A stretch of DNA of 64,000 bases from the IMG/VR virus record IMGVR_UViG_3300030019_000576; one strand, written 5' to 3'. Position 1 is the stretch's first letter, and every line of letters begins with the position of its first letter. The notes below the pieces were generated by a model that made no database searches, had not been told where the DNA came from, and saw only the letters and a program-made list of their open reading frames with translations. The DNA comes from a virus. Of the stretch, positions 33,195 to 62,707 are shown one piece after another. The position numbers and the translations under genes are program-made.

Positions 33195-33396
33195 ATATTT
33201 TTTTTATTAAGAACGTTCTATATGTTGGATTACTTTTACCCAAGTAATACCACATTCTTTGTCCATTGCTTAAACTTTTCCAATATACTGAACAAAATAC
33301 CCTTACTTTCTTTTTAAGTTTTCTTGGTATTTTATTATCAGAAAATGATATTACTTTAGGTAAAGTAAAATGTTTATCTAAATCTTCGTATTTCAT
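33163..33396 (-). CDS. hypothetical protein
   Basis: Small basic ORF. Confidence 0.3.
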   Translation of the reverse strand: MKYEDLDKHFTLPKVISFSDNKIPRKLKKKVRVFCSVYWKSLSNGQRMWYYLGKSNPTYRTFLIKKICDYDRFQIIR

Positions 33397-34274
33397 TAGT
33401 TAATATATTCATCCATTAAAAATATTCCGCAAGAGCTTCCGCAATCTTGTCCTGGTGGGATATAATATTCATATTCAATATTATATTTTTTGAAGTGTTC
33501 AGCAAAAATTTCAACTTGTTTAAAGTCAGAATGTTTAGCTGGTATATTTTCTTTTTCATTATAATATAAAAACTTCACATTAAATCCTTTGTCTTTAATT
33601 AAATCAGTTAAACGTATAGCATCTTCTTCTGTATCATTTATACCATCAATTAATGCATAGTGAATTTCAACCTTATTACCCGTTTTTATTTTATAAAAAT
33701 CTGCTGCTGCTATTGTAGATTTAATATCTAATGATGCTTTCATCCATTCATTTCTTAATTCATCAGTAGTATAGTGTAATGATATATGCAATTTAACATT
33801 TAAATTTAACATATCAATTAATCTTACCATGTTAAAAAAATGTTCGTAATTATATTTTGGTAATGCAGTTGCAAATGCAAATCTTGTATTTACTTTATAT
33901 TCATTATTAATATAATTCATACTGTCAACTACTGCTTTATAATTTGTTACAGCATCACCCATACCCATGTAGCTTATTAAAAGTGTTTTTGGTTCAACCT
34001 TTAGCTTTAAATCAAGGTAGATATAATCAATACCATCTGTTATTTCATCCCAAGTTAAATTTCTTGATACAATTTTACCAATTAAATCAGTTGCAAAACA
34101 AAATTTACATGCTAAATTACATAATGTATTACATGGTACACATATAATATCTTTACCATCATTTTTATTGATATATGAAAATTCAATTATTAAATTATCT
34201 TCTGTGTAGAAAACATATTTAATAGTACTGTCAATAGTTGATTTAACTATTTTCTTTAATCTAAGTTTACCCAT
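33396..34274 (-). CDS. radical SAM methyltransferase, RlmN/Cfr family
   Basis: CVPCNTLCNLACKFCFAT aligns with RlmN CVSSQVGCALECKFCST. MGMGDAVTN aligns with MGMGEPLLN, LHISLHYTTDELR with LAISLHAPNDEIR, and C-terminal GQDCGSSCG with DDIDAACGQ (the conserved C-terminal Cys). Confidence 0.7.
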   Translation of the reverse strand: MGKLRLKKIVKSTIDSTIKYVFYTEDNLIIEFSYINKNDGKDIICVPCNTLCNLACKFCFATDLIGKIVSRNLTWDEITDGIDYIYLDLKLKVEPKTLLISYMGMGDAVTNYKAVVDSMNYINNEYKVNTRFAFATALPKYNYEHFFNMVRLIDMLNLNVKLHISLHYTTDELRNEWMKASLDIKSTIAAADFYKIKTGNKVEIHYALIDGINDTEEDAIRLTDLIKDKGFNVKFLYYNEKENIPAKHSDFKQVEIFAEHFKKYNIEYEYYIPPGQDCGSSCGIFLMDEYIN

Positions 34275-34317: not shown

Positions 34318-34686
34318 TTATTTTGTATATTTTACAAGATTATCCCAATCGCTACTATCTTTTTCTTCCATCCAAACATGTATTATTTTATCGTTAAAAA
34401 TATTATACTTTTTAACAGTTTCTTTTATGAAATCTGATATTTCATCGTTTGTCATTTTGCATTCATAATAAAGTTTTTCCCATAAATCTTCAATAACCCA
34501 CATAGTTAAAGTTGATTCATAATATTGAATCATTATATTATTATCAACACCAAAATATTTATTACTAAGTTGATTTTTAACTTTTATCTTACCTATACCA
34601 AAAGTATAATCAAGAAAAATCCGTTGTGCAAGGGTTAATCTTGATTCCTTTATTCGATGTATTTTATCTAAAATACTATTTGACAT
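34318..34686 (-). CDS. DKIxxIK-SRLS family protein
   Basis: MSNSILDKIHRIKESRLTLAQR. Confidence 0.45.
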   Translation of the reverse strand: MSNSILDKIHRIKESRLTLAQRIFLDYTFGIGKIKVKNQLSNKYFGVDNNIMIQYYESTLTMWVIEDLWEKLYYECKMTNDEISDFIKETVKKYNIFNDKIIHVWMEEKDSSDWDNLVKYTK

Positions 34687-35080
34687 AGTTGTGTTTCCTT
34701 TCTATACTATTAAGATGTCTTATAATATGTTTCCATGATTTGTTTTCCTTATGTCTTATAATGATATCCGAATCTTTTATATCGTAATTTTTATTAAAAA
34801 AATCATTTATAACTTTTTTTAATTCAGATGCATTCTTTATAGGAAGTATTAAATTACTTGCTGAATTACCCCAAAATAGTTCATTATCCAAATGTAGTAT
34901 AGTTTTAAGTACAGTCCTTTCTATTTCAAATAGTATACGACCATCCTTTATATAAAATAATGATGTAGGGTATTGTTTATGTCTAAATGGTGTAATATTA
35001 ATACATAAACCAATTAAATATCGTTCATTATCACTTAATCTACTATATTTTATAGTTCTTATTTTATCTAACATTTTCAT
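34676..35080 (-). CDS. DKIxxIK-SRLS family protein
   Basis: MKMLDKIRTIKYSRLSDNER. Confidence 0.45.
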   Translation of the reverse strand: MKMLDKIRTIKYSRLSDNERYLIGLCINITPFRHKQYPTSLFYIKDGRILFEIERTVLKTILHLDNELFWGNSASNLILPIKNASELKKVINDFFNKNYDIKDSDIIIRHKENKSWKHIIRHLNSIERKHNYVK

Positions 35081-35411
35081 ATTGTTTTAAATTATCCCAC
35101 CAATCTTGTTGACTATCTGAAATAACATCTATTTTATATCCTAAAATATTTAAATGAACATGAAACATTTTATAAATAAAATCTTCAATATCCCAATCAT
35201 TCTTAACACTTACAATCATACACCATAACGTCCTATTAACCCATACTGATTTACCTTTCGTGTTTTGTTCAAATACACAACCACGTGTGTTATACCACCG
35301 AATTATATTATCACTCACTTGATGGGGTTTAATACAATCAATAGCATCAATAAAAGTTCTTTCTTCTTTTGATAATCTACTATATTTAATTTTTTTTATT
35401 TTATCTTTCAT
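35064..35411 (-). CDS. DKIxxIK-SRLS family protein
   Basis: MKDKIKKIKYSRLSKEER. Confidence 0.45.
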   Translation of the reverse strand: MKDKIKKIKYSRLSKEERTFIDAIDCIKPHQVSDNIIRWYNTRGCVFEQNTKGKSVWVNRTLWCMIVSVKNDWDIEDFIYKMFHVHLNILGYKIDVISDSQQDWWDNLKQYENVR

Positions 35412-35722
35412 ATATCTTTCAATGAAAATTCAGTTATATGAATTTTTAAATATCGACTAATAGTTTTCCATATTAAAGATTCTGTTTCATATGAATTTAA
35501 TCTTAATTTTTGACTTAAATTATAAAAAAGTTCCGTACTAAATACAATTGAACCATAATCATTAAATAGAAACTTTGTAAAGTAAAAAAGTTTTTTACTA
35601 TTTTTTGTATAATAAAAAAAACCATTTTCTTCAACTATTTTAACATCATCAAAAATGATGCATTTCATCATTTCTTTTGGTGTAAGTCTACTGTATTTAA
35701 TTTGTCTTATTTTATCTTTCAT
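35408..35722 (-). CDS. DKIxxIK-SRLS family protein
   Basis: MKDKIRQIKYSRLTPKEM. Confidence 0.45.
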   Translation of the reverse strand: MKDKIRQIKYSRLTPKEMMKCIIFDDVKIVEENGFFYYTKNSKKLFYFTKFLFNDYGSIVFSTELFYNLSQKLRLNSYETESLIWKTISRYLKIHITEFSLKDI

Positions 35723-36069
35723 AAATATTCTATTGTGAAAAAGGTCATCCTAATTTTAAAATGCAAAGCAATAGTTTTCATAATTAATAATTCTGTTTCA
35801 TTTGTATCTAAATGTAATTTTTTACGTAATCTATAAAAAAGATTATGACTAAATACAATTTCACCATATTTTGGATCATCAGTAAATGCAAATTTTCTAA
35901 AGTAAAAAATATTTATATTATTTCGTTTATAATTTATACTATTTCGTTTATAATATATTCTTCCACCTTCTTTATTTGTTTCCACACCATCCACAATGAA
36001 ATATCTCATGATTTCTTTTGGTGTCATTCTACTATATTTGATTCTTTGTATTTTATCTTTTATGTTCAT
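35719..36069 (-). CDS. DKIxxIK-SRLS family protein
   Basis: MNIKDKIQRIKYSRMTPKEI. Confidence 0.45.
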   Translation of the reverse strand: MNIKDKIQRIKYSRMTPKEIMRYFIVDGVETNKEGGRIYYKRNSINYKRNNINIFYFRKFAFTDDPKYGEIVFSHNLFYRLRKKLHLDTNETELLIMKTIALHFKIRMTFFTIEYL

Positions 36070-36392
36070 TCTTGCATTATTTTACAAACTATTTCATAAT
36101 CATACCAATCAAAGTAATCTATGCACATTTTTTTTGCATAGATTAATGCATCTTCTTTTTTATATCCAAATGTTTTAACTAATGGGTATATAACATTAGT
36201 ATAATTAATAGAAACATATTTATTTTTTTTATCTACTTGAAATATAGTTTCACCTTCACTGTTTTCATAAAAATAGTCACTTCTCGGTAAAAAAAGTTTA
36301 TGTGATTTTACATTATCAAATAAATCAATAATCCATTTATCAGAACCTGATAAACGTAATCTTTTAATATGTCTTATTTTATCTTTAATCAT
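36066..36392 (-). CDS. DKIxxIK-SRLS family protein
   Basis: MIKDKIRHIKRLRLSGSDK. Confidence 0.45.
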   Translation of the reverse strand: MIKDKIRHIKRLRLSGSDKWIIDLFDNVKSHKLFLPRSDYFYENSEGETIFQVDKKNKYVSINYTNVIYPLVKTFGYKKEDALIYAKKMCIDYFDWYDYEIVCKIMQE

Positions 36393-37266: not shown

Positions 37267-37719
37267 TTATTTTTTAAATTTAAATTCTTCGTAACTTTTA
37301 GAACCTTTTCTACTATTACATTTTTTACAAGAAACGACCCAATTTTTTTCATCTAATAAGTTTACTTTTCCAGAACTCATTGGTATAACATGGTCAACAG
37401 TTGCTAACATTTTATTCTTATTATTTAAAGCTGATTGATTAATTAGTCTATATCCAACTTCTAAATGTATTTTACCACAATAATGACATACTAAATCACC
37501 TGTTCTACGTTTTTCCTTTAATAAAAATATAAAACGTCTATTCAAATATTCTTGTATTTCATACATACCTTTCAAATAGTCTTCATCCATTTCTTTTAAA
37601 TAATCATTTAAAAGAATAAGAGCTGCTTGTGATTTAATTGATACATTATCATCATTATAAATCAGATGATTTACAACTGTATTACCCGAAGAAGACTTAT
37701 GATATGTTATTGTTTTCAT
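37267..37719 (-). CDS. HNH endonuclease (start moved to ATG 37719; the track start is an upstream extension)
   Basis: CHYCGK...VDHVIPMSSGK...NWVVSCKKCNSRKG is an HNH motif with flanking Cys pairs. The promoter-like motif at 37721-37765 is inside the extension. Confidence 0.65.
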   Translation of the reverse strand: MKTITYHKSSSGNTVVNHLIYNDDNVSIKSQAALILLNDYLKEMDEDYLKGMYEIQEYLNRRFIFLLKEKRRTGDLVCHYCGKIHLEVGYRLINQSALNNKNKMLATVDHVIPMSSGKVNLLDEKNWVVSCKKCNSRKGSKSYEEFKFKK

Positions 37720-37720
37720 A

Positions 37721-37765
37721 ATGAATACAAATATACAACAAATTTTTCGATATACCAAATAATAA
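37721..37765 (-). promoter_or_regulatory. variant promoter motif
   Basis: aatgaatacaaatatacaacaaatttttcgatataccaaataat. Confidence 0.35.
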
Positions 37766-37770
37766 CCAAA

Positions 37771-37800
37771 AAAAAGTGACTAATATAGCCACTTTTTAAT
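37771..37800 (-). terminator. weak hairpin terminator after the flotillin gene
   Basis: AAAAGTGac...gcCACTTTTTAA, a short stem with a T-run. Confidence 0.3.
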
Positions 37801-37820: not shown

Positions 37821-39674
37821 TTATTTCTTTGCTGTTGGTGTTACTTTTTCTACTTCTTTCTTATCTTGGATATATTTCATTAATTCTATACCAATAAGAC
37901 TATCAACACCAGAACCACCACCTTGACCACCGTTAATCAAGATTTCAGGAATGATTTTTACACCATTTTTACCAATTTCTTCAATAACTTTAAGTTTTCC
38001 AAAATTTTCAGCACCCATTGCAGTTACTTGACCTTTATATGATTCAGCGTTAGCCTTACCAATTGCTTCAATCTTACCAGCTTCGGCTGCACCCATCATT
38101 TGAATTTTAGCAGCATCTGCTTCTGCATTTACTTTAGTAGCCTTTGCGTTAGCAGCAGCTTTAATTTCAACAGATTTAGCTTCACCCTCTGATTGCTTAA
38201 CAGCAGCTTCTGCTTCACGTTGTGAAATTTCTACTTGTTGTTGAGCAGCAACCATTTTAGGTTGAATATCAGCTAATGCTTTCGCAGTTTCCAACATCTT
38301 CTTTTGGTCTTGTGCTTTTGTTTGTGTTTCGAAAGTAATTTCTTCTTCCTGTGCAATCTTACGGTCAGTTAAAGTCTTCATAAGTGATTCAGGTGGAACG
38401 ATATCACCGATAAGCGTATCTACTGCCTTTACATTATATTCATCCAATACCTTTGTAATTTCAACTTTTGCAGCATTTTGACGTTCTTGACGTGTAGACA
38501 AGAAAGCAATAACATCTGAATCTTGTGCTGAATTACGGAAGTAGTTACCGATTGTTGGTTCAAGTACTTGTGATACAAGGTTTTGCATTGAACCGAAACG
38601 TGCAATTACTTTTGGTGCTTCTACTGATGGAATGTGAATAATTTGTGATACATCCAAATTGAATGGGAAACCATCTTTTGAACGTACTGTAATAGTACTC
38701 AAATTCTTATCAAGATTGTGTGATTCACTACGTGCATTTGCCCAATTAAGTACTAAGTTTGTAGTAGGAACGATTTCAATACGTTGTGTATAAGTATTAA
38801 TTGCATATTTTCCTGGATCAAGTGTTTGTAACCACACCCCTTTATTACCTTTTTCTACAATGTTACCATGTTTAAATCCATCACCAGTGACATCTTTACC
38901 ATCACCACCTACATATGAAATAACAACACCAGCGGTACCAATTGGAATTTCTGTCATTGGTCGTTTTTCAATCTGAATTGCCCAAGGACTTAATGTATAA
39001 GAACCCGCTTGAATAACTTGAATTTGAAGACCACGTTGACCACCATTTTCTAAAAACTTATCGAAGTCTTGGAAGTTATTGTGACCACTAATTTCAGAAC
39101 CTGCAATAGAACCTGTTGTAAGTGGTGTACCATCCAATGTAGTAATAATACCAATTGTACCATCTTCAATAGTTGTAATATCTGCTAAGAATACATCAAA
39201 CAATAGTGAATTAATACGATATACACCGTTATTAAGATAACCAACTTGTTTACCACGAGAACCGTTGTTGTTCAAAAATGCACGTGCATTTTGATAATTA
39301 TCAGATTCTACATGTCGTGCTAAAATAAAACCTACTTCAAGAATTTTACCATCTTTAGCTGATACCATACCAATTTTTCCTTTCGGGATGTCAGTAAATG
39401 CAGCTAAATCAATTTTGTACTGCCATACCCAATAACCCCATCCCAAGAAACCTGGTGCTAATGTATCTGCTTGAAACCCTGCTTCACCATTTAAGGCGAT
39501 AATCTTACCATCTGGTAATGAACGTTCTTTACCAAATAGGACGAATTTTTTCGTAACTAATCCAATTCGGTTTTCTGGAATGATAATCATTCCGAATAGT
39601 ACACGCAAAATTTGCTTGTAAAAAATAATTGCTAACAAAGGGAGCAACACCCACCAATAACTTAAAATTTCCAT
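37821..39674 (-). CDS. SPFH/band-7 flotillin-like membrane protein (YqiK-like)
   Basis: N-terminal TM, an SPFH core (IIPENRIGLVTKKF...) and a long Ala/Glu/Lys-rich coiled-coil C-terminus (AEADAAKIQMMGAAEAGKIEAIGKANAESY). Local GC is clearly higher than in the flanks. Confidence 0.7.
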   Translation of the reverse strand: MEILSYWWVLLPLLAIIFYKQILRVLFGMIIIPENRIGLVTKKFVLFGKERSLPDGKIIALNGEAGFQADTLAPGFLGWGYWVWQYKIDLAAFTDIPKGKIGMVSAKDGKILEVGFILARHVESDNYQNARAFLNNNGSRGKQVGYLNNGVYRINSLLFDVFLADITTIEDGTIGIITTLDGTPLTTGSIAGSEISGHNNFQDFDKFLENGGQRGLQIQVIQAGSYTLSPWAIQIEKRPMTEIPIGTAGVVISYVGGDGKDVTGDGFKHGNIVEKGNKGVWLQTLDPGKYAINTYTQRIEIVPTTNLVLNWANARSESHNLDKNLSTITVRSKDGFPFNLDVSQIIHIPSVEAPKVIARFGSMQNLVSQVLEPTIGNYFRNSAQDSDVIAFLSTRQERQNAAKVEITKVLDEYNVKAVDTLIGDIVPPESLMKTLTDRKIAQEEEITFETQTKAQDQKKMLETAKALADIQPKMVAAQQQVEISQREAEAAVKQSEGEAKSVEIKAAANAKATKVNAEADAAKIQMMGAAEAGKIEAIGKANAESYKGQVTAMGAENFGKLKVIEEIGKNGVKIIPEILINGGQGGGSGVDSLIGIELMKYIQDKKEVEKVTPTAKK

Positions 39675-39721
39675 TTTTTTTTCTTTTTTTAAATTGTTTT
39701 TATTATTAATTAAATCTATTT

Positions 39722-40171
39722 TTAAAACGTTTTTTTAAACCCATCACTTTTACCTAATATCATATTACTTGTTAGGTTTAAAATTTCTTGATATCCTGTT
39801 CCTTTTAGTATTGATATATCATCACCATTAAGCATATAAATTGCAGAACCTGTTTTTGCTGATAAACCAACATAATTCAAATATTTACTTTTAATTATTT
39901 TACTTGAATTAAATGTTACATAGATTGGGTTTTTATTTTTAGATGAAGAACTATCAAATCCTTTTTTACTAACTTCGGGTTTACCGAATGAACCTGACTC
40001 AGCATTACCAAATGAAACACCGTCTGTTTTGTCAATTGGTTTTACTTTAACTTTCATTTGTATTACTTCCAATTCTTTTTGTTCTAAGTGTGTACTATTC
40101 TTTGTATAAAGTTTAATAAATAGGATAACAAATAGAATCAATATTGGAACAATTACTGCGTAGATATCCAT
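39722..40171 (-). CDS. NfeD/YqiJ-like membrane protein (flotillin partner, tentative)
   Basis: N-terminal TM helix plus a C-terminal beta-rich G-x-G segment (LSAKTGSAIYMLNGDDISILKGTG). It sits immediately upstream of the flotillin gene, as in yqiJK. Confidence 0.35.
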   Translation of the reverse strand: MDIYAVIVPILILFVILFIKLYTKNSTHLEQKELEVIQMKVKVKPIDKTDGVSFGNAESGSFGKPEVSKKGFDSSSSKNKNPIYVTFNSSKIIKSKYLNYVGLSAKTGSAIYMLNGDDISILKGTGYQEILNLTSNMILGKSDGFKKTF

Positions 40172-40212: not shown

Positions 40213-40524
40213 TTAATTATTTTCATCAGTTTCTTTTTCTTTTTGGTATTCTTTAAGTTTCTTAGTCATTAAAGCAGTACCAATTGTGAATACAACAGCA
40301 GCTACAAGTATTAATGGTAACGCAGCTAAAACTTCGGTTTTTTTACTTGATAATACTATAATAAGTATAACACAAATCCAACTAATAATTGCTAAACCCT
40401 TACTTTGACGGATTTGACTTTTCAATGCTTCTTCCATATTATTTTTCTGTTTTAGTTTTAAAAGTTTCACGTGTTTTTGTTGATAAGAATCCATAATCAG
40501 CAGTAAGTTTTTTGCATCCAACAA
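40213..40524 (-). CDS. small membrane protein
   Basis: Two TM helices. Confidence 0.35.
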   Translation of the reverse strand: MLDAKNLLLIMDSYQQKHVKLLKLKQKNNMEEALKSQIRQSKGLAIISWICVILIIVLSSKKTEVLAALPLILVAAVVFTIGTALMTKKLKEYQKEKETDENN

Positions 40525-41311
40525 ATTTATTATATAAATTATTTGGGAATGTGTCTAACATTGCATTGTTTAAATTCGATAATGCAATACATTCTTTTTC
40601 AATATTAAAATATCCCTCACGTTGTGTAGTAATAAAAACACTTAAATCTGAATAGAATGTAGTGAATTGGTCATATGGTATTTGTTGATTTTCTTGTAAC
40701 CACTTCCATGTTAGATTTTTTCCATCAGCACGGTTTTCCATGATAAGTTTGGTAACTTCAATAAAAGTTTGCTTATCCATGTTAGTGATTTTTTCTTTCT
40801 GATTGTAGGTAGTCCACATTTTATCATAAAATCCCGCTTTTTCTTGGACTTTTGCATTAAATGCATATTGGTATTTGATTGATTGGTTATACATTGAACT
40901 ACCATCTTTGAATATACCAATTCCTAATTTAAATAAGTTTATAACAATATAAAATGATATAAATAATATAAGACCTTTTTTCCAAGTGAATCCTTTTTTA
41001 TTTACTTTAATATTTGGTTCAGTTGATTTATTTTTCTTTTCATTGTCATGTTTATAAGTATTGTAAAGATTACGTAAATCCTTATCTGCCCAATCCCAAA
41101 TGGTAATTATATACATTACAACCAATCCAATTATGGTAATTATGTTAAATACACAATGTAATCCACCGAATGTATTAGTAATACCATAACTATGTGATTC
41201 CATATAATCACCAGGAAATTTCAAACCCCATGTATATCCAACACCTAATGAAAGGATAATAAGAACACCTAATAGAAATAGGTAAAATTGCGTTTTAGTA
41301 AGTTTATTCAT
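40439..41311 (-). CDS. multi-pass membrane protein
   Basis: Several hydrophobic helices; ATG start with a promoter motif upstream. Confidence 0.45.
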   Translation of the reverse strand: MNKLTKTQFYLFLLGVLIILSLGVGYTWGLKFPGDYMESHSYGITNTFGGLHCVFNIITIIGLVVMYIITIWDWADKDLRNLYNTYKHDNEKKNKSTEPNIKVNKKGFTWKKGLILFISFYIVINLFKLGIGIFKDGSSMYNQSIKYQYAFNAKVQEKAGFYDKMWTTYNQKEKITNMDKQTFIEVTKLIMENRADGKNLTWKWLQENQQIPYDQFTTFYSDLSVFITTQREGYFNIEKECIALSNLNNAMLDTFPNNLYNKFVGCKKLTADYGFLSTKTRETFKTKTEK

Positions 41312-41938: not shown

Positions 41939-42400
41939 TCAAACTACCAAATGTTTATCCAATAATAATTCATTTAAATTTTTATAAAATGGTATTTTAT
42001 AGTCATCACATACTATTTTAACGTTACCACTTCTCCAATATTCATCAGGGCAGCATACGATTAACTTACCACTTGATGCTTGAAGACCTAATTCTAATAA
42101 TGATATAGGACTTTTACTATTTGGTAGAAAATTCATTATAATAATGTCTGAATATTCCATTGCATTTAATTCCCATTTTACTTGACCATAAAATTCTGCA
42201 TTTTCAATTTTTTGTTCCCATGAATCATCCCATACATCCCTACGTGGATTATATAATACTACATTCGGAAAACTACTAAAGTGTTCTTCAACATTTTTCT
42301 GCCAATTTTCAGATTCACCTTGGTCAATGGTACCTGCTAAAAAGATAGCAAATGTGCCATATGGTTTCTGTATTGGAATTGGTGGTTTATAACTTGTCAT
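41939..42400 (-). CDS. nucleoside 2-deoxyribosyltransferase-like (SLOG superfamily) protein, tentative
   Basis: GTFAIFLAGTIDQG resembles the YLAGP nucleotide-binding loop of NDT/DUF4406 proteins. Confidence 0.35.
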   Translation of the reverse strand: MTSYKPPIPIQKPYGTFAIFLAGTIDQGESENWQKNVEEHFSSFPNVVLYNPRRDVWDDSWEQKIENAEFYGQVKWELNAMEYSDIIIMNFLPNSKSPISLLELGLQASSGKLIVCCPDEYWRSGNVKIVCDDYKIPFYKNLNELLLDKHLVV

Positions 42401-43480: not shown

Positions 43481-43774
43481 TTAATGTTTCCAAATATATT
43501 TACTTAATACGAATTTCATCTTTCTATCAAAATCGGGATCATTTTCTAATTCTTTCAACATACCATAATGATATGATGTATCTAATGAATTATCATCGGG
43601 TTCACCGTTACGTAGAATCATTTGATAGTTATCATTTACATAAGAATCTTCATCTTCATATGTATTTATTTCATCAATATCTTCATGTATTCTTTCTAAT
43701 ACTTTTACTACTTCACGATAAAACATAACCTTTTTAAGTTTTTTATTAATCATTGAATTTTTTTTGAAAGTCAT
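43481..43774 (-). CDS. hypothetical protein
   Basis: Co-oriented ORF. Confidence 0.4.
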   Translation of the reverse strand: MTFKKNSMINKKLKKVMFYREVVKVLERIHEDIDEINTYEDEDSYVNDNYQMILRNGEPDDNSLDTSYHYGMLKELENDPDFDRKMKFVLSKYIWKH

Positions 43775-44255
43775 TAAAATCTTCGCAAAAAATAATCAAA
43801 TTTATTTGTTCGGATGTCATAAAATCACCCATATGTTTAAATAAATTAAACCATTGTTCACCGAATAAGTAAATATTTGGTTTTACAATCATTTTACGAA
43901 CTTCATCTAAGAGTAAAAATAATTCAGCAAGTGTTCCAATACCACCTCTTTGAATTACAAAGGTTTCGCTTTCAGCATTTAAATATCCTAATCTATCATA
44001 AATATCATTACATATAATAGTTTCAGTTAAAAATTCATTACCTTTTGTGAATCCAAAAGACTTACATGTATATCCAAATGCTTGTCCATCTGCTTCTGTT
44101 GCACCCTTTGATACAGCTTCCATTAACCCACGATAACCACCATTTTTAACTATAAAACCCTTATTAGCTAAGAATCCACCTATTAGAATACTATCATTAT
44201 ATTCCTTTGTTGTTCTATCATTGATAGCACCACCGAAAAAAGTTGCGTATTTCAT
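43746..44255 (-). CDS. LOG-family (Lonely Guy / TIGR00730) putative nucleotide N-glycosidase
   Basis: GGYRGLMEAVSKGA (the GGGxGxMgA motif) and QRGGIGTLAELF (the PGGxGTxxE motif). Confidence 0.65.
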   Translation of the reverse strand: MKYATFFGGAINDRTTKEYNDSILIGGFLANKGFIVKNGGYRGLMEAVSKGATEADGQAFGYTCKSFGFTKGNEFLTETIICNDIYDRLGYLNAESETFVIQRGGIGTLAELFLLLDEVRKMIVKPNIYLFGEQWFNLFKHMGDFMTSEQINLIIFCEDFNDFQKKFND

Positions 44256-45505: not shown

Positions 45506-46477
45506 TTAATTATTACTAATAAATTTATCAACAATATCTACACATTGTTTAAATCTGTCTTCAAAATCAGTTCCTTTAATGTAAGAAATATTCTTATCTT
45601 TAAAGTTATTGTATAGCAATTCGTGGAATTTTGAACGATTTGGTTCACCCATCCGACTACCATCATCAACAAAAGGTACATCATTCCATAGGAATAAGTA
45701 TAAATCAAATTTATTTGCATCTTCTACTTCCTTAGTGATATTTTCTGGGTGTTTATCAAATAGAAAGTTACTATAACAAACAGTTGTTATTAAATCAGTA
45801 TCAGAAAATAATATTTTATCCCCTAAGTTTTTTTCAATTTCTTCTGCTTGACCTGTAATTATTAGATTTATCATATCTGTATCACATATTTTTGTATCTG
45901 AACACACATCACGACCTACTTCTTTTGCAAACTTAAAGTTATAGTGATTAGATAATAATTCTGTCATAGTTGATTTACCAGTACTTTCAGTACCACATAT
46001 ACATATTTTTTTAGTATAATATGATTTAACTGATTTTGGTATAAAATTCCAATATTTTAATGGTGTTTCCCTTATTGATGTAGATGAAATCGGTGTGTTT
46101 GTTCTTTTTTCATCGTATTGCATATGTTTAATATTCATAAATCCACCAACATAATCACCATATTTTTCACTTGTGAAAATTATATTCACATCAGGAAATA
46201 AATCTGTTAAATATAAAGACCAAACCCTTGATATTTCAATATTTGATACAGATGTATTTTCCATATGTGATGTATCCTTATGAATTATTTTTATATTAGG
46301 TATATCTTTAAATTCTTCTTGTAACCATTTATATCTAAGTTCGCTTGGAATTTCTTCTTTATCGTGTGAGCATAATAATACATAAAGAAAATCAGAATTT
46401 GATAATCCAAAGTTTATTAAAGAAAGATGTCCATTATGTAAAGGACAAAAACTACCTAATACTAATCCTGTTCTCAT
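45506..46477 (-). CDS. nadR: bifunctional NMN adenylyltransferase / ribosylnicotinamide kinase (NadR type, lacking the HTH domain)
   Basis: GLVLGSFCPLHNGH (HxGH). ISSTSIRETPLKYWNFIPKSVKSYY...ICGTESTGKST aligns with E. coli NadR ISGAQIRENPFRYWEYIPTEVKPFF...ILGGESSGKST. A Walker B DTD is present. Confidence 0.85.
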   Translation of the reverse strand: MRTGLVLGSFCPLHNGHLSLINFGLSNSDFLYVLLCSHDKEEIPSELRYKWLQEEFKDIPNIKIIHKDTSHMENTSVSNIEISRVWSLYLTDLFPDVNIIFTSEKYGDYVGGFMNIKHMQYDEKRTNTPISSTSIRETPLKYWNFIPKSVKSYYTKKICICGTESTGKSTMTELLSNHYNFKFAKEVGRDVCSDTKICDTDMINLIITGQAEEIEKNLGDKILFSDTDLITTVCYSNFLFDKHPENITKEVEDANKFDLYLFLWNDVPFVDDGSRMGEPNRSKFHELLYNNFKDKNISYIKGTDFEDRFKQCVDIVDKFISNN

Positions 46478-59435: not shown

Positions 59436-60614
59436 TTATACATCATATATTGGACATCCAATATTACATTTTCTACATGCTGAAACCTTGTCACCAAAAT
59501 CAGTTGTTTTTTTATTAAACCATACATCAGTCATAAAATCATTACAATTTGAAACCATTATACCTTGTTTCCAACCATCGGTACCTTCTGTAAATGAACA
59601 AGGAAAATATTCTGAATTAACATTAATATATGCTGAATATTTTCCACCTGCTTCACATGGTTCAATAAAAGTTTTCATATATTCATATTCAGTATTTTTA
59701 TTTATGAAAATATTTGCTTTTGCAGCAGAACAACTATCAAATCCTATACTAATTTTGTTATCAATTGCAAATTTAAAAAGATTGTCAAATTTTTCTTGTG
59801 ATAAATTAGTAAATCTACCAACACTTCTACCTTTTTCTTTAAGTGATAAAAATACAATACTTCTTAATTCAGATAATCTAATATCAGATTTTATATCATT
59901 CAAAATTTCAAATGCATTATCATAAGTTTCTTCTGAAATCATAACATGCAAATTACATTGTTTCAATCCTTTATCAGTTAGTTTTTTTACCGTATCATAT
60001 GATTTATCTTTATCATATACACTAACTGCAACTGCACCACAATATTTAACTAATTTATTAATATCATCATCAGTTGCTTCACCGTTTATTGTTATAGTTG
60101 GTATAATATCATTTGATTTAGTATAGTCTAATATATCCCATAAATCAGGACATAAATCAATGCTACCGATACCAAAAGCAATAGATGTTACAGATGGTGG
60201 TAATTTATGGAAAGTGTCTTTAAAGTCTTTAAATGAAATATTTTTACCATTTTTTATTGTATTGCTTTTATAACAAAATGCACATCCCATACTACATTTT
60301 TCACTAATTTCCCAATCAACAATTTCAGGTGCAGTTACACTAAAATCACCATCTGTTTTTAAATCAGTAAAAAATTCGTGTATATTTATTTTTACACCCC
60401 ACATATTAGACCATATACGATGTAATTTAATATCAAAAAGATTAAATCCTTTTTCTAAATTTGTATAATCACCTTTTCCCCAACGAATAAAAAAACCCGT
60501 TTGTTTATTAAATAAAAAATTATATTTTTCACTTTTAAGTGCTTTAAAAAGTGATGTATCAATAATAGTTGCTACATCACCATTTATCAAAATAATATTT
60601 GTTGTTTTAATCAT
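59436..60614 (-). CDS. radical SAM / SPASM-domain protein (anSME- or RiPP-maturase-like)
   Basis: EKCSMGCAFCY is the CxxxCxxC cluster. The C-terminus has a Cys-rich SPASM-like region (CEAGG...CSF...CND...CRKCNIGCP). Confidence 0.6.
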   Translation of the reverse strand: MIKTTNIILINGDVATIIDTSLFKALKSEKYNFLFNKQTGFFIRWGKGDYTNLEKGFNLFDIKLHRIWSNMWGVKINIHEFFTDLKTDGDFSVTAPEIVDWEISEKCSMGCAFCYKSNTIKNGKNISFKDFKDTFHKLPPSVTSIAFGIGSIDLCPDLWDILDYTKSNDIIPTITINGEATDDDINKLVKYCGAVAVSVYDKDKSYDTVKKLTDKGLKQCNLHVMISEETYDNAFEILNDIKSDIRLSELRSIVFLSLKEKGRSVGRFTNLSQEKFDNLFKFAIDNKISIGFDSCSAAKANIFINKNTEYEYMKTFIEPCEAGGKYSAYINVNSEYFPCSFTEGTDGWKQGIMVSNCNDFMTDVWFNKKTTDFGDKVSACRKCNIGCPIYDV

Positions 60615-61239: not shown

Positions 61240-61770
61240 TTATTTTATTTCTTTTACTTCTAATATATTTATAATTGTTTGATTTACCCCTTTAAATGTA
61301 GTATGCTTTTTTACAGTAGCTATTATTTTAATAATATCACCTACTTCTAATTCTTTTCTTTTATTTTCACCAGTGAAACAGTATACTTCATATGTTTTTG
61401 GATTATAGAAATTAACCCTTCTATTTCCACTAAAATGGGTAGACTTTAAATGAAGTAATTCTACATCTGTCATTTTATTTCTATCCAATATACAATGAAT
61501 TACACCATCTTTTATTTCAACTTTTACAAGTTTATCGAAGAGTTCATTCGTTTGATTTCTTACTACTGTTCCAGTTATAGCACAAGTATATTCAATATAT
61601 GAAATAAACCATATTTTTCTTTCTTTAGCTATGATAGTATTACCTTCCTTATCAACAAAAGTATAAAATACATAAGTGTATTCTTCTTTATTAATAAACT
61701 TAATACCTGTTAATACAAGTTCGTGAAAGTATTGATACTTATCTATTTTACCTATAAAATTATTTTTCAT
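61240..61770 (-). CDS. hypothetical protein
   Basis: Co-oriented ORF. Confidence 0.4.
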   Translation of the reverse strand: MKNNFIGKIDKYQYFHELVLTGIKFINKEEYTYVFYTFVDKEGNTIIAKERKIWFISYIEYTCAITGTVVRNQTNELFDKLVKVEIKDGVIHCILDRNKMTDVELLHLKSTHFSGNRRVNFYNPKTYEVYCFTGENKRKELEVGDIIKIIATVKKHTTFKGVNQTIINILEVKEIK

Positions 61771-62707
61771 ATAAATTATTTTTAATCATTTTTTGTGTAA
61801 CCCAATGTTTAGAATTTGGATTTACATGATTTTTTCTAACCCATTTTACAACAGATTTACCAAAATCTTTATAACTAAAACTTTCTGCAAGTCTAATTAC
61901 ATATCCTTCTTGAAATTCAGGATTAATTGTGAATTTCTTAATAAAATCTAAATCAAATATACCACGATATAAAACTGTTACTGTTTTTAAATCTAATAAT
62001 TTACACCATTCTACGGTATCATCCCAAGACAATGCATAATTTCTATCATTCCATATATTAAATACCATAAAATAAGATGGTAAATTATCATAATGTAATG
62101 AATGTTGTGCGTATAAATTTTCACCACATATTCTCCAATTTTGTGGTATATCATAACGAATATTACCCCAAAGTCCTTTTAACCAATTTCTTGATGGGTG
62201 ATTATTAGAATCTAATGAACGTGCAAAACAGCTATCATTCATAAGTGTTGAATTTTCCCCATCCATTTTTTCAGTTATTACAATTTCCTTACCTATAAAA
62301 TATGATAAATCATATGTAATTTTATCATCAGATGTAGCACCTTCTGACCATTCCACGTGACGTGTTCTCGGATATTTCATTTTATTGTTTTCCATAATAA
62401 CTTCACCCCATTTATCATAACTTAAATCTTCATCAAACCCATCAGGTAGTATTATATTTGTAATACTTGCTTTTATTCTTAATGTTTCACAACTTAAAAT
62501 ACCATTTTCTGCTTCTATGTGGTGTTTTTCACAAAGGGAAACACCATTATTCAAATAATACCCACCATCAGTAAACTGCTTTCTATCAATTATATGGTGA
62601 ACATCAATTGCAATGCACCCACATACAACGCATTTATTAGAATCCCTTTTGAAGGTAGATTCCCTAAATTCATCACGTGTTAATAATACATTACCAATTG
62701 TTTTCAT
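61760..62707 (-). CDS. HNH-like zinc-finger domain fused to an Rnl2-type RNA ligase
   Basis: N-terminal CVVCGC...VHHIIDRK...N...CEKHH (HNH). After that: motif I ITEKMDGEN (KxDG), ICGENLYAQHS (motif III), EGYVIR (motif IV), KWVRKNH (motif V, lysines). Confidence 0.55.
   Translation of the reverse strand: MKTIGNVLLTRDEFRESTFKRDSNKCVVCGCIAIDVHHIIDRKQFTDGGYYLNNGVSLCEKHHIEAENGILSCETLRIKASITNIILPDGFDEDLSYDKWGEVIMENNKMKYPRTRHVEWSEGATSDDKITYDLSYFIGKEIVITEKMDGENSTLMNDSCFARSLDSNNHPSRNWLKGLWGNIRYDIPQNWRICGENLYAQHSLHYDNLPSYFMVFNIWNDRNYALSWDDTVEWCKLLDLKTVTVLYRGIFDLDFIKKFTINPEFQEGYVIRLAESFSYKDFGKSVVKWVRKNHVNPNSKHWVTQKMIKNNLYEK

Follow-up and report, generated by a model that had tools for sequence, protein, structure and literature searches.

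A flotillin-like SPFH protein with a four-fold N-terminal beta-module, apparently long resident in huge phages

Proteins of the SPFH superfamily, including HflK/C, flotillin and stomatin, form cages (PMC12624060, PMC12005517), and SPFH proteins act in membrane-stress responses (PMC8581546). Those of phages that we found in the literature are, so far, annotations only. Here, we analyze a flotillin-like gene in a 64,000-nucleotide (nt) stretch of viral DNA from the IMG/VR record IMGVR_UViG_3300030019_000576 (hereafter, the window). The gene (positions 37821-39674, minus strand) is an open reading frame (ORF) of 617 amino acids (aa) that encodes an SPFH/Band_7 membrane protein, and a 149-aa ORF (39722-40171, minus strand) lies immediately upstream, separated from it by 47 nt. 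An initial annotation, made from the sequence alone, placed both ORFs correctly and recognized in the larger product an SPFH protein with a transmembrane (TM) anchor and an Ala/Glu/Lys-rich helical stretch, encoded within a phage genome; these observations held up. The same annotation took the protein for a typical YqiK-type flotillin that had recently been captured from the host, and the upstream product for a putative NfeD-type partner, and here our results differ. The comparisons described below indicate that the 617-aa protein is an SPFH protein of flotillin-like layout, a member of a Bacteroidota-type subfamily rather than a typical YqiK, and that its gene has long been part of a huge-phage lineage. 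We consider both this identity and this evolutionary history to be well supported and hold them with high confidence.

The window has a G+C (GC) content of 25.2% and contains ~110 ORFs, almost all on one strand, among which are genes for a primase, an HNH-RNA ligase, NMNAT and several families known from PHROGs alone. Together with the relatives of the flotillin-like gene on huge-phage contigs that also carry Gp23-like capsid genes, this gene content bears out the phage setting, and the window looks like the genome of a large phage of Bacteroidota. When 20 kb of the window were compared with phage records by megablast, no match was returned. The identical 617-aa protein, with the gene order kept, is encoded on at least 7 metagenome contigs from several samples.

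The Pfam Band_7/SPFH profile (PF01145) matches residues 242-453 of the 617-aa protein (E = 7e-24; score of 85.3 bits, cut-off 23.6), and PHROG_200 matches the protein with E = 6e-17; searches with it of NCBIfam and PADLOC gave no match, nor did a phmmer search against the PDB sequences. Its homologs of ~620 aa number in the thousands. Residues 1-33 (39576-39674, minus strand) comprise an N-terminal membrane anchor, the sole hydrophobic segment of the protein, in which Kyte-Doolittle hydropathy exceeds 1.6 at residues 1-15 (+19) only. A low-confidence AlphaFold2 (AF2) model places helices at residues 4-26, and W8, Y19, K20, R24, G28 and P33 are invariant among 53 homologs. Because Lys and Arg residues come after the hydrophobic segment, we infer that the bulk of the protein is cytoplasmic.

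Between the anchor and the Pfam SPFH match lie ~210 residues of repeated modules. When an alignment of 128 sequences was analyzed with hhalign, residues 31-241 (38952-39584, minus strand) resolved into three additional tandem beta-modules of ~70 aa each, R1 to R3. The second and third of these pair at 99.5% (E = 1e-22) and the first two at 96.5%, and the fourth module, R4, with which the SPFH match begins, pairs with R3 at 93.5% and with R2 at 83.5%; in control comparisons of the repeats with the SPFH core or the coiled coil, all E-values were above 0.1. Residues 31-316 thus consist of the beta-module that starts the SPFH domain, present four times in tandem. A profile of R2-R3 found no relative in the PDB that is detectable by sequence. 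Conservation is highest in the part formed by R4 and the SPFH alpha/beta core (residues 242-455; 38310-38951, minus strand), where identity is 79% with the bacterial copies and 84% with viral group 1; for the SPFH core, identities between the groups are 79-84% throughout. The core is followed by a long helical, coiled-coil-like region at residues 456-560 (37995-38309, minus strand), 58% of which is Ala, Glu, Lys or Gln; AF2 predicts helices at residues 429-558 with low confidence. In a profile of 53 sequences, residues 421-575 weakly match the C-terminal helical region of human Flotillin-2 (E = 0.0027).

This architecture does not fit the YqiK type that had been proposed. At E ≤ 0.1, the Pfam Flot domain (PF15975) is found neither in the window protein nor in its Flavobacterium ortholog, whereas E. 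coli YqiK scores 6e-41; the BLASTP match between the window protein and E. coli YqiK has E = 0.49 and is confined to low-complexity helical segments; and Band_7 is matched only behind the additional modules.

One point in favor of recent capture from a current Flavobacteriia host, as the initial annotation suggested, is that cellular homologs are found in Bacteroidota only. A search of bacteria and archaea, with one genome for each of 185,579 species, identified 456 stretches that encode a relative of the 617-aa protein. The best 80 of these 456 all come from Bacteroidota or their allies (Flavobacterium, Fluviicola, Chitinophagaceae, Ferruginibacter, Ohtaekwangia and one metagenome-assembled genome (MAG) of Ignavibacteria). 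However, the best bacterial identities are only 61-64%, with a maximum of 64.4%, although the bacterial classes are 74-81% identical among themselves, and viral copies are closer. In IMG/VR, 50 viral contigs carry the flotillin-like gene, for the most part at 60-75% identity, and 35 of them are at 65-78%; ten contigs are 250-508 kb long, and many viral contigs in this size range encode a copy 73-75% identical to that of the window. A large protein database contains more than 120 clusters at 73-82% identity, one of which has a member encoded on a 305-kb contig of GCA_902729885.1 with a gene content typical of huge phages. The copy of the 642-kb uncultured phage LR756502.1 is 63.5% identical.

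In a neighbor-joining tree of 128 full-length sequences, the bacteria form one group that follows their own taxonomy, and all viral sequences but one fall outside it. After removal of near-duplicates (93 sequences retained), the split between bacteria and viruses has bootstrap support of 100/100, and the window protein belongs to a viral subgroup of 21 members (99/100). Identity of the three viral groups to the bacterial ones is 62-67% throughout, no bacterial group being favored, and among the viral groups themselves it is 61-66%. The neighborhoods have no gene family in common: the bacterial genes are flanked by YebC, TruA, a metallophosphoesterase and a TPM-domain protein, and the viral ones by Nampt-like NAPRTase, Prs-like, nucleoside 2-deoxyribosyltransferase-like and Gp23-like capsid proteins.

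Three records deserve comment. The sole "viral" sequence inside the bacterial group, L112 (IMGVR_UViG_2938244860_000001), groups within the Flavobacterium clade and comes from an isolate-genome entry; probably, this is a bacterial region or a prophage flank included in IMG/VR, not a phage copy. Two sequences are labeled as Proteobacteria, namely, L050 (CP034120.1, 'Glaciecola amylolytica'), which groups tightly with Fluviicola, and L071 (a 'Bosea thiooxidans' MAG), which groups with Chitinophagaceae; these labels do not fit the sequences, whose placement suggests mislabeled or contaminated assemblies.

The other argument for recent capture was composition, and the compositional anomaly is real. 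The gene has a GC content of 0.355 against 0.240 and 0.251 in the 5-kb flanks, and the rise is sharply confined to the ORF. Compared with all non-overlapping 1854-bp windows, this value corresponds to z = 5.5 (the highest elsewhere is 0.317), and the gene ranks first in GC among the 110 ORFs of the window. The excess sits at codon positions 1 and 2 (GC1 of 0.519, the maximum of the window; GC2 of 0.364), whereas GC3 is only 0.183 (mean of the window, 0.140 ± 0.031). Gly (9.4% versus 4.8%) and Ala (8.9% versus 2.9%) are abundant in the protein, as are Val and Gln. Because back-translation of its sequence with the synonymous codon usage of the window already yields a GC of 0.329, amino acid composition accounts for about three quarters (74%) of the GC excess.

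The synonymous codon usage of the gene, the most atypical among 90 genes (z = -4.7), could again be taken as a mark of foreign origin. The bias, however, is not a general shift towards GC: AGA and AGG are used for none of the 18 Arg residues and CGT for 15 of them, ATA is used for one of the 61 Ile residues (the fraction in the window is 0.44), and GGT, TTC, AAC, ATC and AAG are elevated. Optimal-codon patterns of this kind are classic for highly expressed genes. Viral homologs show the same tendency in comparison with their own flanks (ATA among Ile codons, 0.09 versus 0.36; AGA and AGG among Arg codons, 0.37 versus 0.74), as do, more mildly, the bacterial homologs. The viral lineages are just 61-77% identical at the protein level, so that their synonymous sites must be saturated, and the shared bias is therefore kept by selection, not left over from a transfer. 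Across every genome examined, GC1 (0.46-0.63) and GC2 (0.35-0.43) of the flotillin-like gene are nearly constant, and in AT-rich bacteria, too, the gene exceeds its flanks in GC. Phage tRNAs were sought as a possible cause of the codon bias; tRNA and Rfam scans of the window gave no match. The high GC is thus a property of a protein rich in Gly, Ala, Val and Gln combined with selection for optimal codons, and from the codon bias we infer abundant expression. More generally, raw GC can mislead: in a genome with 25% GC, an old, Gly/Ala-rich gene that uses optimal codons looks foreign.

Taken together, the identities, the split in the tree, the neighbors and the composition lead us to rule out recent capture, which on the available sequences is hardly credible; the GC of the gene does differ from the background, as the capture scenario would have it, but related phages widely carry homologs, which are not host-like. 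The simplest reading of the sequence relationships would be a single ancient transfer from a bacterium to a phage. This direction is suggested by the bacterial copies, which follow taxonomy and sit among housekeeping genes, and descent from bacteria long ago is plausible because the cellular relatives are confined to Bacteroidota and their allies.

The 149-aa protein encoded upstream of the flotillin-like gene has a putative TM helix, a disordered Ser/Lys-rich linker and a C-terminal domain of ~60 aa. The initial annotation saw in this layout an NfeD/YqiJ-type partner, and a two-gene flotillin-NfeD module, in which a divergent NfeD/YqiJ-type protein docks to the SPFH cage, would agree with the shared strand and the 47-nt gap, with the presence of a homologous small protein directly upstream in the closest relatives, and with a single-sequence model (pLDDT 47, thus of low confidence) that shows one TM helix, a linker of ~55 disordered residues and a small C-terminal region of four short strands and a helix. 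The protein has no match in Pfam, NCBIfam, PHROG or PADLOC. In a word-indexed search of 5.8 billion proteins, it matched only itself; an exhaustive HMMER search recovered four small relatives (33-52% identity). The closest relatives of the flotillin-like gene (78-79% identical; loci L136 and L137/L138) have a homologous small ORF directly upstream (E = 1e-17 for L136), and these contigs, along with the HMMER relatives, led us to reject the view of the 149-aa ORF as a pure ORFan that lacks a conserved position. According to a profile hidden Markov model of the family, the small gene is present upstream only in the closest relatives of the window (L132-L138) and occurs in none of the 50 other viral and the 80 bacterial loci.

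The profile comparisons, in contrast, do not favor an NfeD-type partner. NfeD (PF01957), YqiJ_N and YqiJ_OB were detected in none of the seven family members even at E ≤ 10, whereas E. coli YqiJ itself scores 1e-15 and 2e-14; the family profile found no PDB sequence at E ≤ 10; and hhalign aligned the family with E. coli YqiJ at a probability of 0.03%. Furthermore, the TM helix is missing in four of the seven members, no NfeD gene adjoins the flotillin-like gene in any of 129 homologs, and the bacterial orthologs are flanked by housekeeping genes, not by NfeD. Thus, the flotillin-NfeD module is very improbable, and the 149-aa protein is a fast-evolving, lineage-restricted product of a gene next to that for the flotillin-like protein.

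The explanation of the locus as a whole that we favor, and that we consider probable though well short of certain, is that the gene encodes an ancient SPFH scaffold of a phage lineage that maintains the membrane of the infected cell. The gene belongs to a virus-only branch of the Bacteroidota-type subfamily that is carried by many huge phages, and the simplest account of this branch would be one ancient exchange with a Bacteroidota-type cell and subsequent inheritance under purifying selection in the phages. Its product is an intact scaffold that runs from the N-terminal anchor through four tandem SPFH beta-modules, the core and the A/E/K/Q-rich helical region to a C-terminal tail and, to judge from the codon bias, would be abundantly expressed. 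As with other SPFH proteins, many copies might then come together as a ring or cage that sits on the inner membrane of the host, on its cytoplasmic side. Such a phage-supplied scaffold could keep the membrane organized, intact and energized while a very large phage completes its long infection cycle, in place of or in addition to the orthologous flotillin of the host, and the 149-aa protein would be a lineage-specific accessory. The physiological role is the tentative element of this scheme: membrane maintenance is our best guess, but one that may well prove wrong.

Several points weigh against this explanation. The designation 'flotillin', given that the Pfam Flot domain is lacking, names a layout and not demonstrated membership in a family. 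The AlphaFold model, built from an alignment of 53 sequences that are all at least 73% identical, has a pLDDT of 46, which leaves the fold of the repeats and the oligomeric state unverified. The codon bias could stem from causes other than the expression level. The bacterial comparisons cover the best 80 of the 456 stretches, and the tree is a neighbor-joining tree without an outgroup, from which the direction and number of transfers are deduced indirectly. With respect to the universality of the gene among related phages, two marker genes of the window were used as queries, of which one found three distant relatives at 35-37% identity and the other none. Finally, SPFH proteins of Erwinia jumbo phages have been detected in virions by mass spectrometry (PMC6034870, PMC7760394), and their presence in virion preparations would suggest a different role.

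Such a role, as a virion-associated or assembly protein that is packaged or serves as a scaffold for particle assembly at the membrane, would also agree with the Gp23-like capsid gene located within ~2 kb of the flotillin-like gene in 13 viral loci and with the weak match of a neighboring 290-aa protein of the window to a PHROG annotated as 'virion structural protein'. The Erwinia proteins, however, belong to different, distant SPFH families, whereas the window protein is orthologous over its full length to an inner-membrane protein of cells and retains the anchor, and its neighbors in the window are small ORFs of unknown function and nucleotide/NAD enzymes, not a structural module. We regard a virion role as quite improbable.

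The neighborhoods in related huge phages bear on yet another possibility, namely, that the protein acts in counter-defense or exclusion at the membrane, either protecting it against membrane-disrupting abortive-infection effectors or blocking the entry of superinfecting DNA. In these phages, the gene lies among NAD-salvage genes (Nampt-like, Prs-like and NMNAT) of the kind that counters NAD-depleting immunity, and both the part that SPFH proteins play in membrane-stress responses and the abundant expression implied by the codon bias would be compatible with such a function. Gene neighborhood is weak evidence in phage genomes, though; PADLOC detected no defense-related match for the protein, which leaves the link to immunity raised in the initial annotation without backing, and our literature search yielded no report of a phage SPFH protein with a role of this kind. 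Counter-defense is thus unlikely, albeit less so than a virion role.

The repeats, in turn, bring up a variant of the scaffold, to which we assign a similarly low probability as to the virion role. The three extra modules between the anchor and the SPFH core might form additional wall, resulting in a tall membrane-anchored cage that could serve as a dedicated membrane compartment around incoming or replicating DNA or around an assembly site, or as a shield from abortive-infection effectors. If this were true, the tall cage would amount to an organelle-like device specific to phages and not just a stand-in for the host flotillin.

Returning to the membrane-maintaining scaffold that we favor, the SPFH core is 79-84% identical across groups, compared with merely 35-37% for the marker gene of the window, which suggests a lasting need of these phages to control the organization of the host membrane. 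A flotillin-like scaffold has thus been retained under strong constraint over a wide range of huge Bacteroidota phages. The clade, being abundant and well conserved, offers a good experimental entry point to the function of phage SPFH proteins, and the SPFH beta-module in four tandem copies represents a structural variant for which proper modeling would be worthwhile.

Directly downstream of the flotillin-like gene, and of note as genomic context only, is an HNH endonuclease gene (37267-37758, minus strand; Pfam HNH, E = 8e-8). The endonuclease gene keeps this place in L136, L137 and L138, and a free-standing HNH gene beside a highly conserved gene is a placement typical of homing endonucleases. 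Its weak PtuB-like HNH matches are the sole PADLOC matches there. The RNA ligase (61760-62707, minus strand) bears another HNH domain as an N-terminal fusion. A terminator-like hairpin with a T-run (37771-37797, minus strand) is located 24 nt past the stop codon of the flotillin-like gene; it is the sole such site in 5.5 kb, where 1.5 are expected by chance, so that its position behind the stop codon is suggestive but not significant. A scan for sigma-70 promoters found fewer sites than in shuffled sequence, and promoters of the sigma-70 type do not fit Bacteroidota anyway.

Several genes around the flotillin-like gene are related to nucleotide and NAD metabolism, namely, those for a nucleoside 2-deoxyribosyltransferase-like protein (41939-42400, minus strand; Pfam Nuc_deoxyri_tr2, E = 1e-30), a LOG/Lysine_decarbox-like protein (43746-44255, minus strand) and NMNAT (45506-46477, minus strand). 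The first of these recurs near the flotillin-like gene in 18 other viral loci, and in related huge phages (loci L087, L129 and L139), the flotillin-like gene is immediately preceded by genes for a Nampt-like NAPRTase (~505 aa) and a Prs-like protein. These nucleotide/NAD genes resemble the NAD+ reconstitution genes of phages. Two membrane-protein ORFs of the window (40213-40524 and 40439-41311, minus strand) overlap by ~86 nt; the longer of the two is the 290-aa ORF with the weak PHROG match noted above, and its homologs are found ~4.5 kb downstream of the flotillin-like gene in L084 and L124. Further away, six tandem small ORFs of 122, 134, 115, 104, 116 and 108 aa (34318-36392, minus strand) all start with the motif M..(K)DKI..IKYSRL(S/T) and form an array of paralogs that belongs to no known family. 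Two proteins of the radical-SAM/Fe-S type are encoded at 33396-34274 (phrog_27142) and 59436-60614 (phrog_7293/16999), both on the minus strand.

Among known systems, the SPFH superfamily links the phage protein to the eukaryotic flotillin-1/2 and HflK/C cages (PDB 9bq2, 9l3g and 7vhp), the similarity to flotillin-2 being marginal; unlike these, the phage protein has a repeated N-terminal module that lacks a counterpart detectable by sequence, and a cage is an assumption in its case. With the SPFH proteins annotated in other phages (Vibrio phages 207E48.1 and 1.244.A, RaK2-like phages, Erwinia jumbo phages and PHROG_200), it shares the superfamily and the encoding by a phage. Those proteins, however, belong to different subfamilies without the Bacteroidota-type architecture, and the Vibrio phage proteins are only 22% identical to it over half the length. 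Our literature search found no paper on this phage clade or on the four-fold repeat. With E. coli YqiK and B. subtilis FloT, the phage protein shares the N-terminal anchor, the SPFH domain and the long Ala/Glu-rich helical region, but in YqiK, Band_7 spans residues 39-192 and Pfam Flot is matched strongly, whereas in the phage protein, which lacks Flot as well as a YqiJ/NfeD partner, the SPFH domain starts at residue 242 instead of ~39 because the three extra modules precede it. The closest counterparts are the ~635-aa SPFH proteins of Bacteroidota (Flavobacterium, Fluviicola and Chitinophagaceae) that are annotated as 'uncharacterized membrane protein YqiK' (COG2268-type). They are colinear with the phage protein over the full length at 61-64% identity and have the same anchor, four-fold beta-module and helical tail, with Band_7 at residues 243-454 in the Flavobacterium ortholog. 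The phage copy differs from them in that it lies on a separate, longer branch (100/100), has entirely different neighbors, and, measured against its genome, is far more strongly biased in codon usage.

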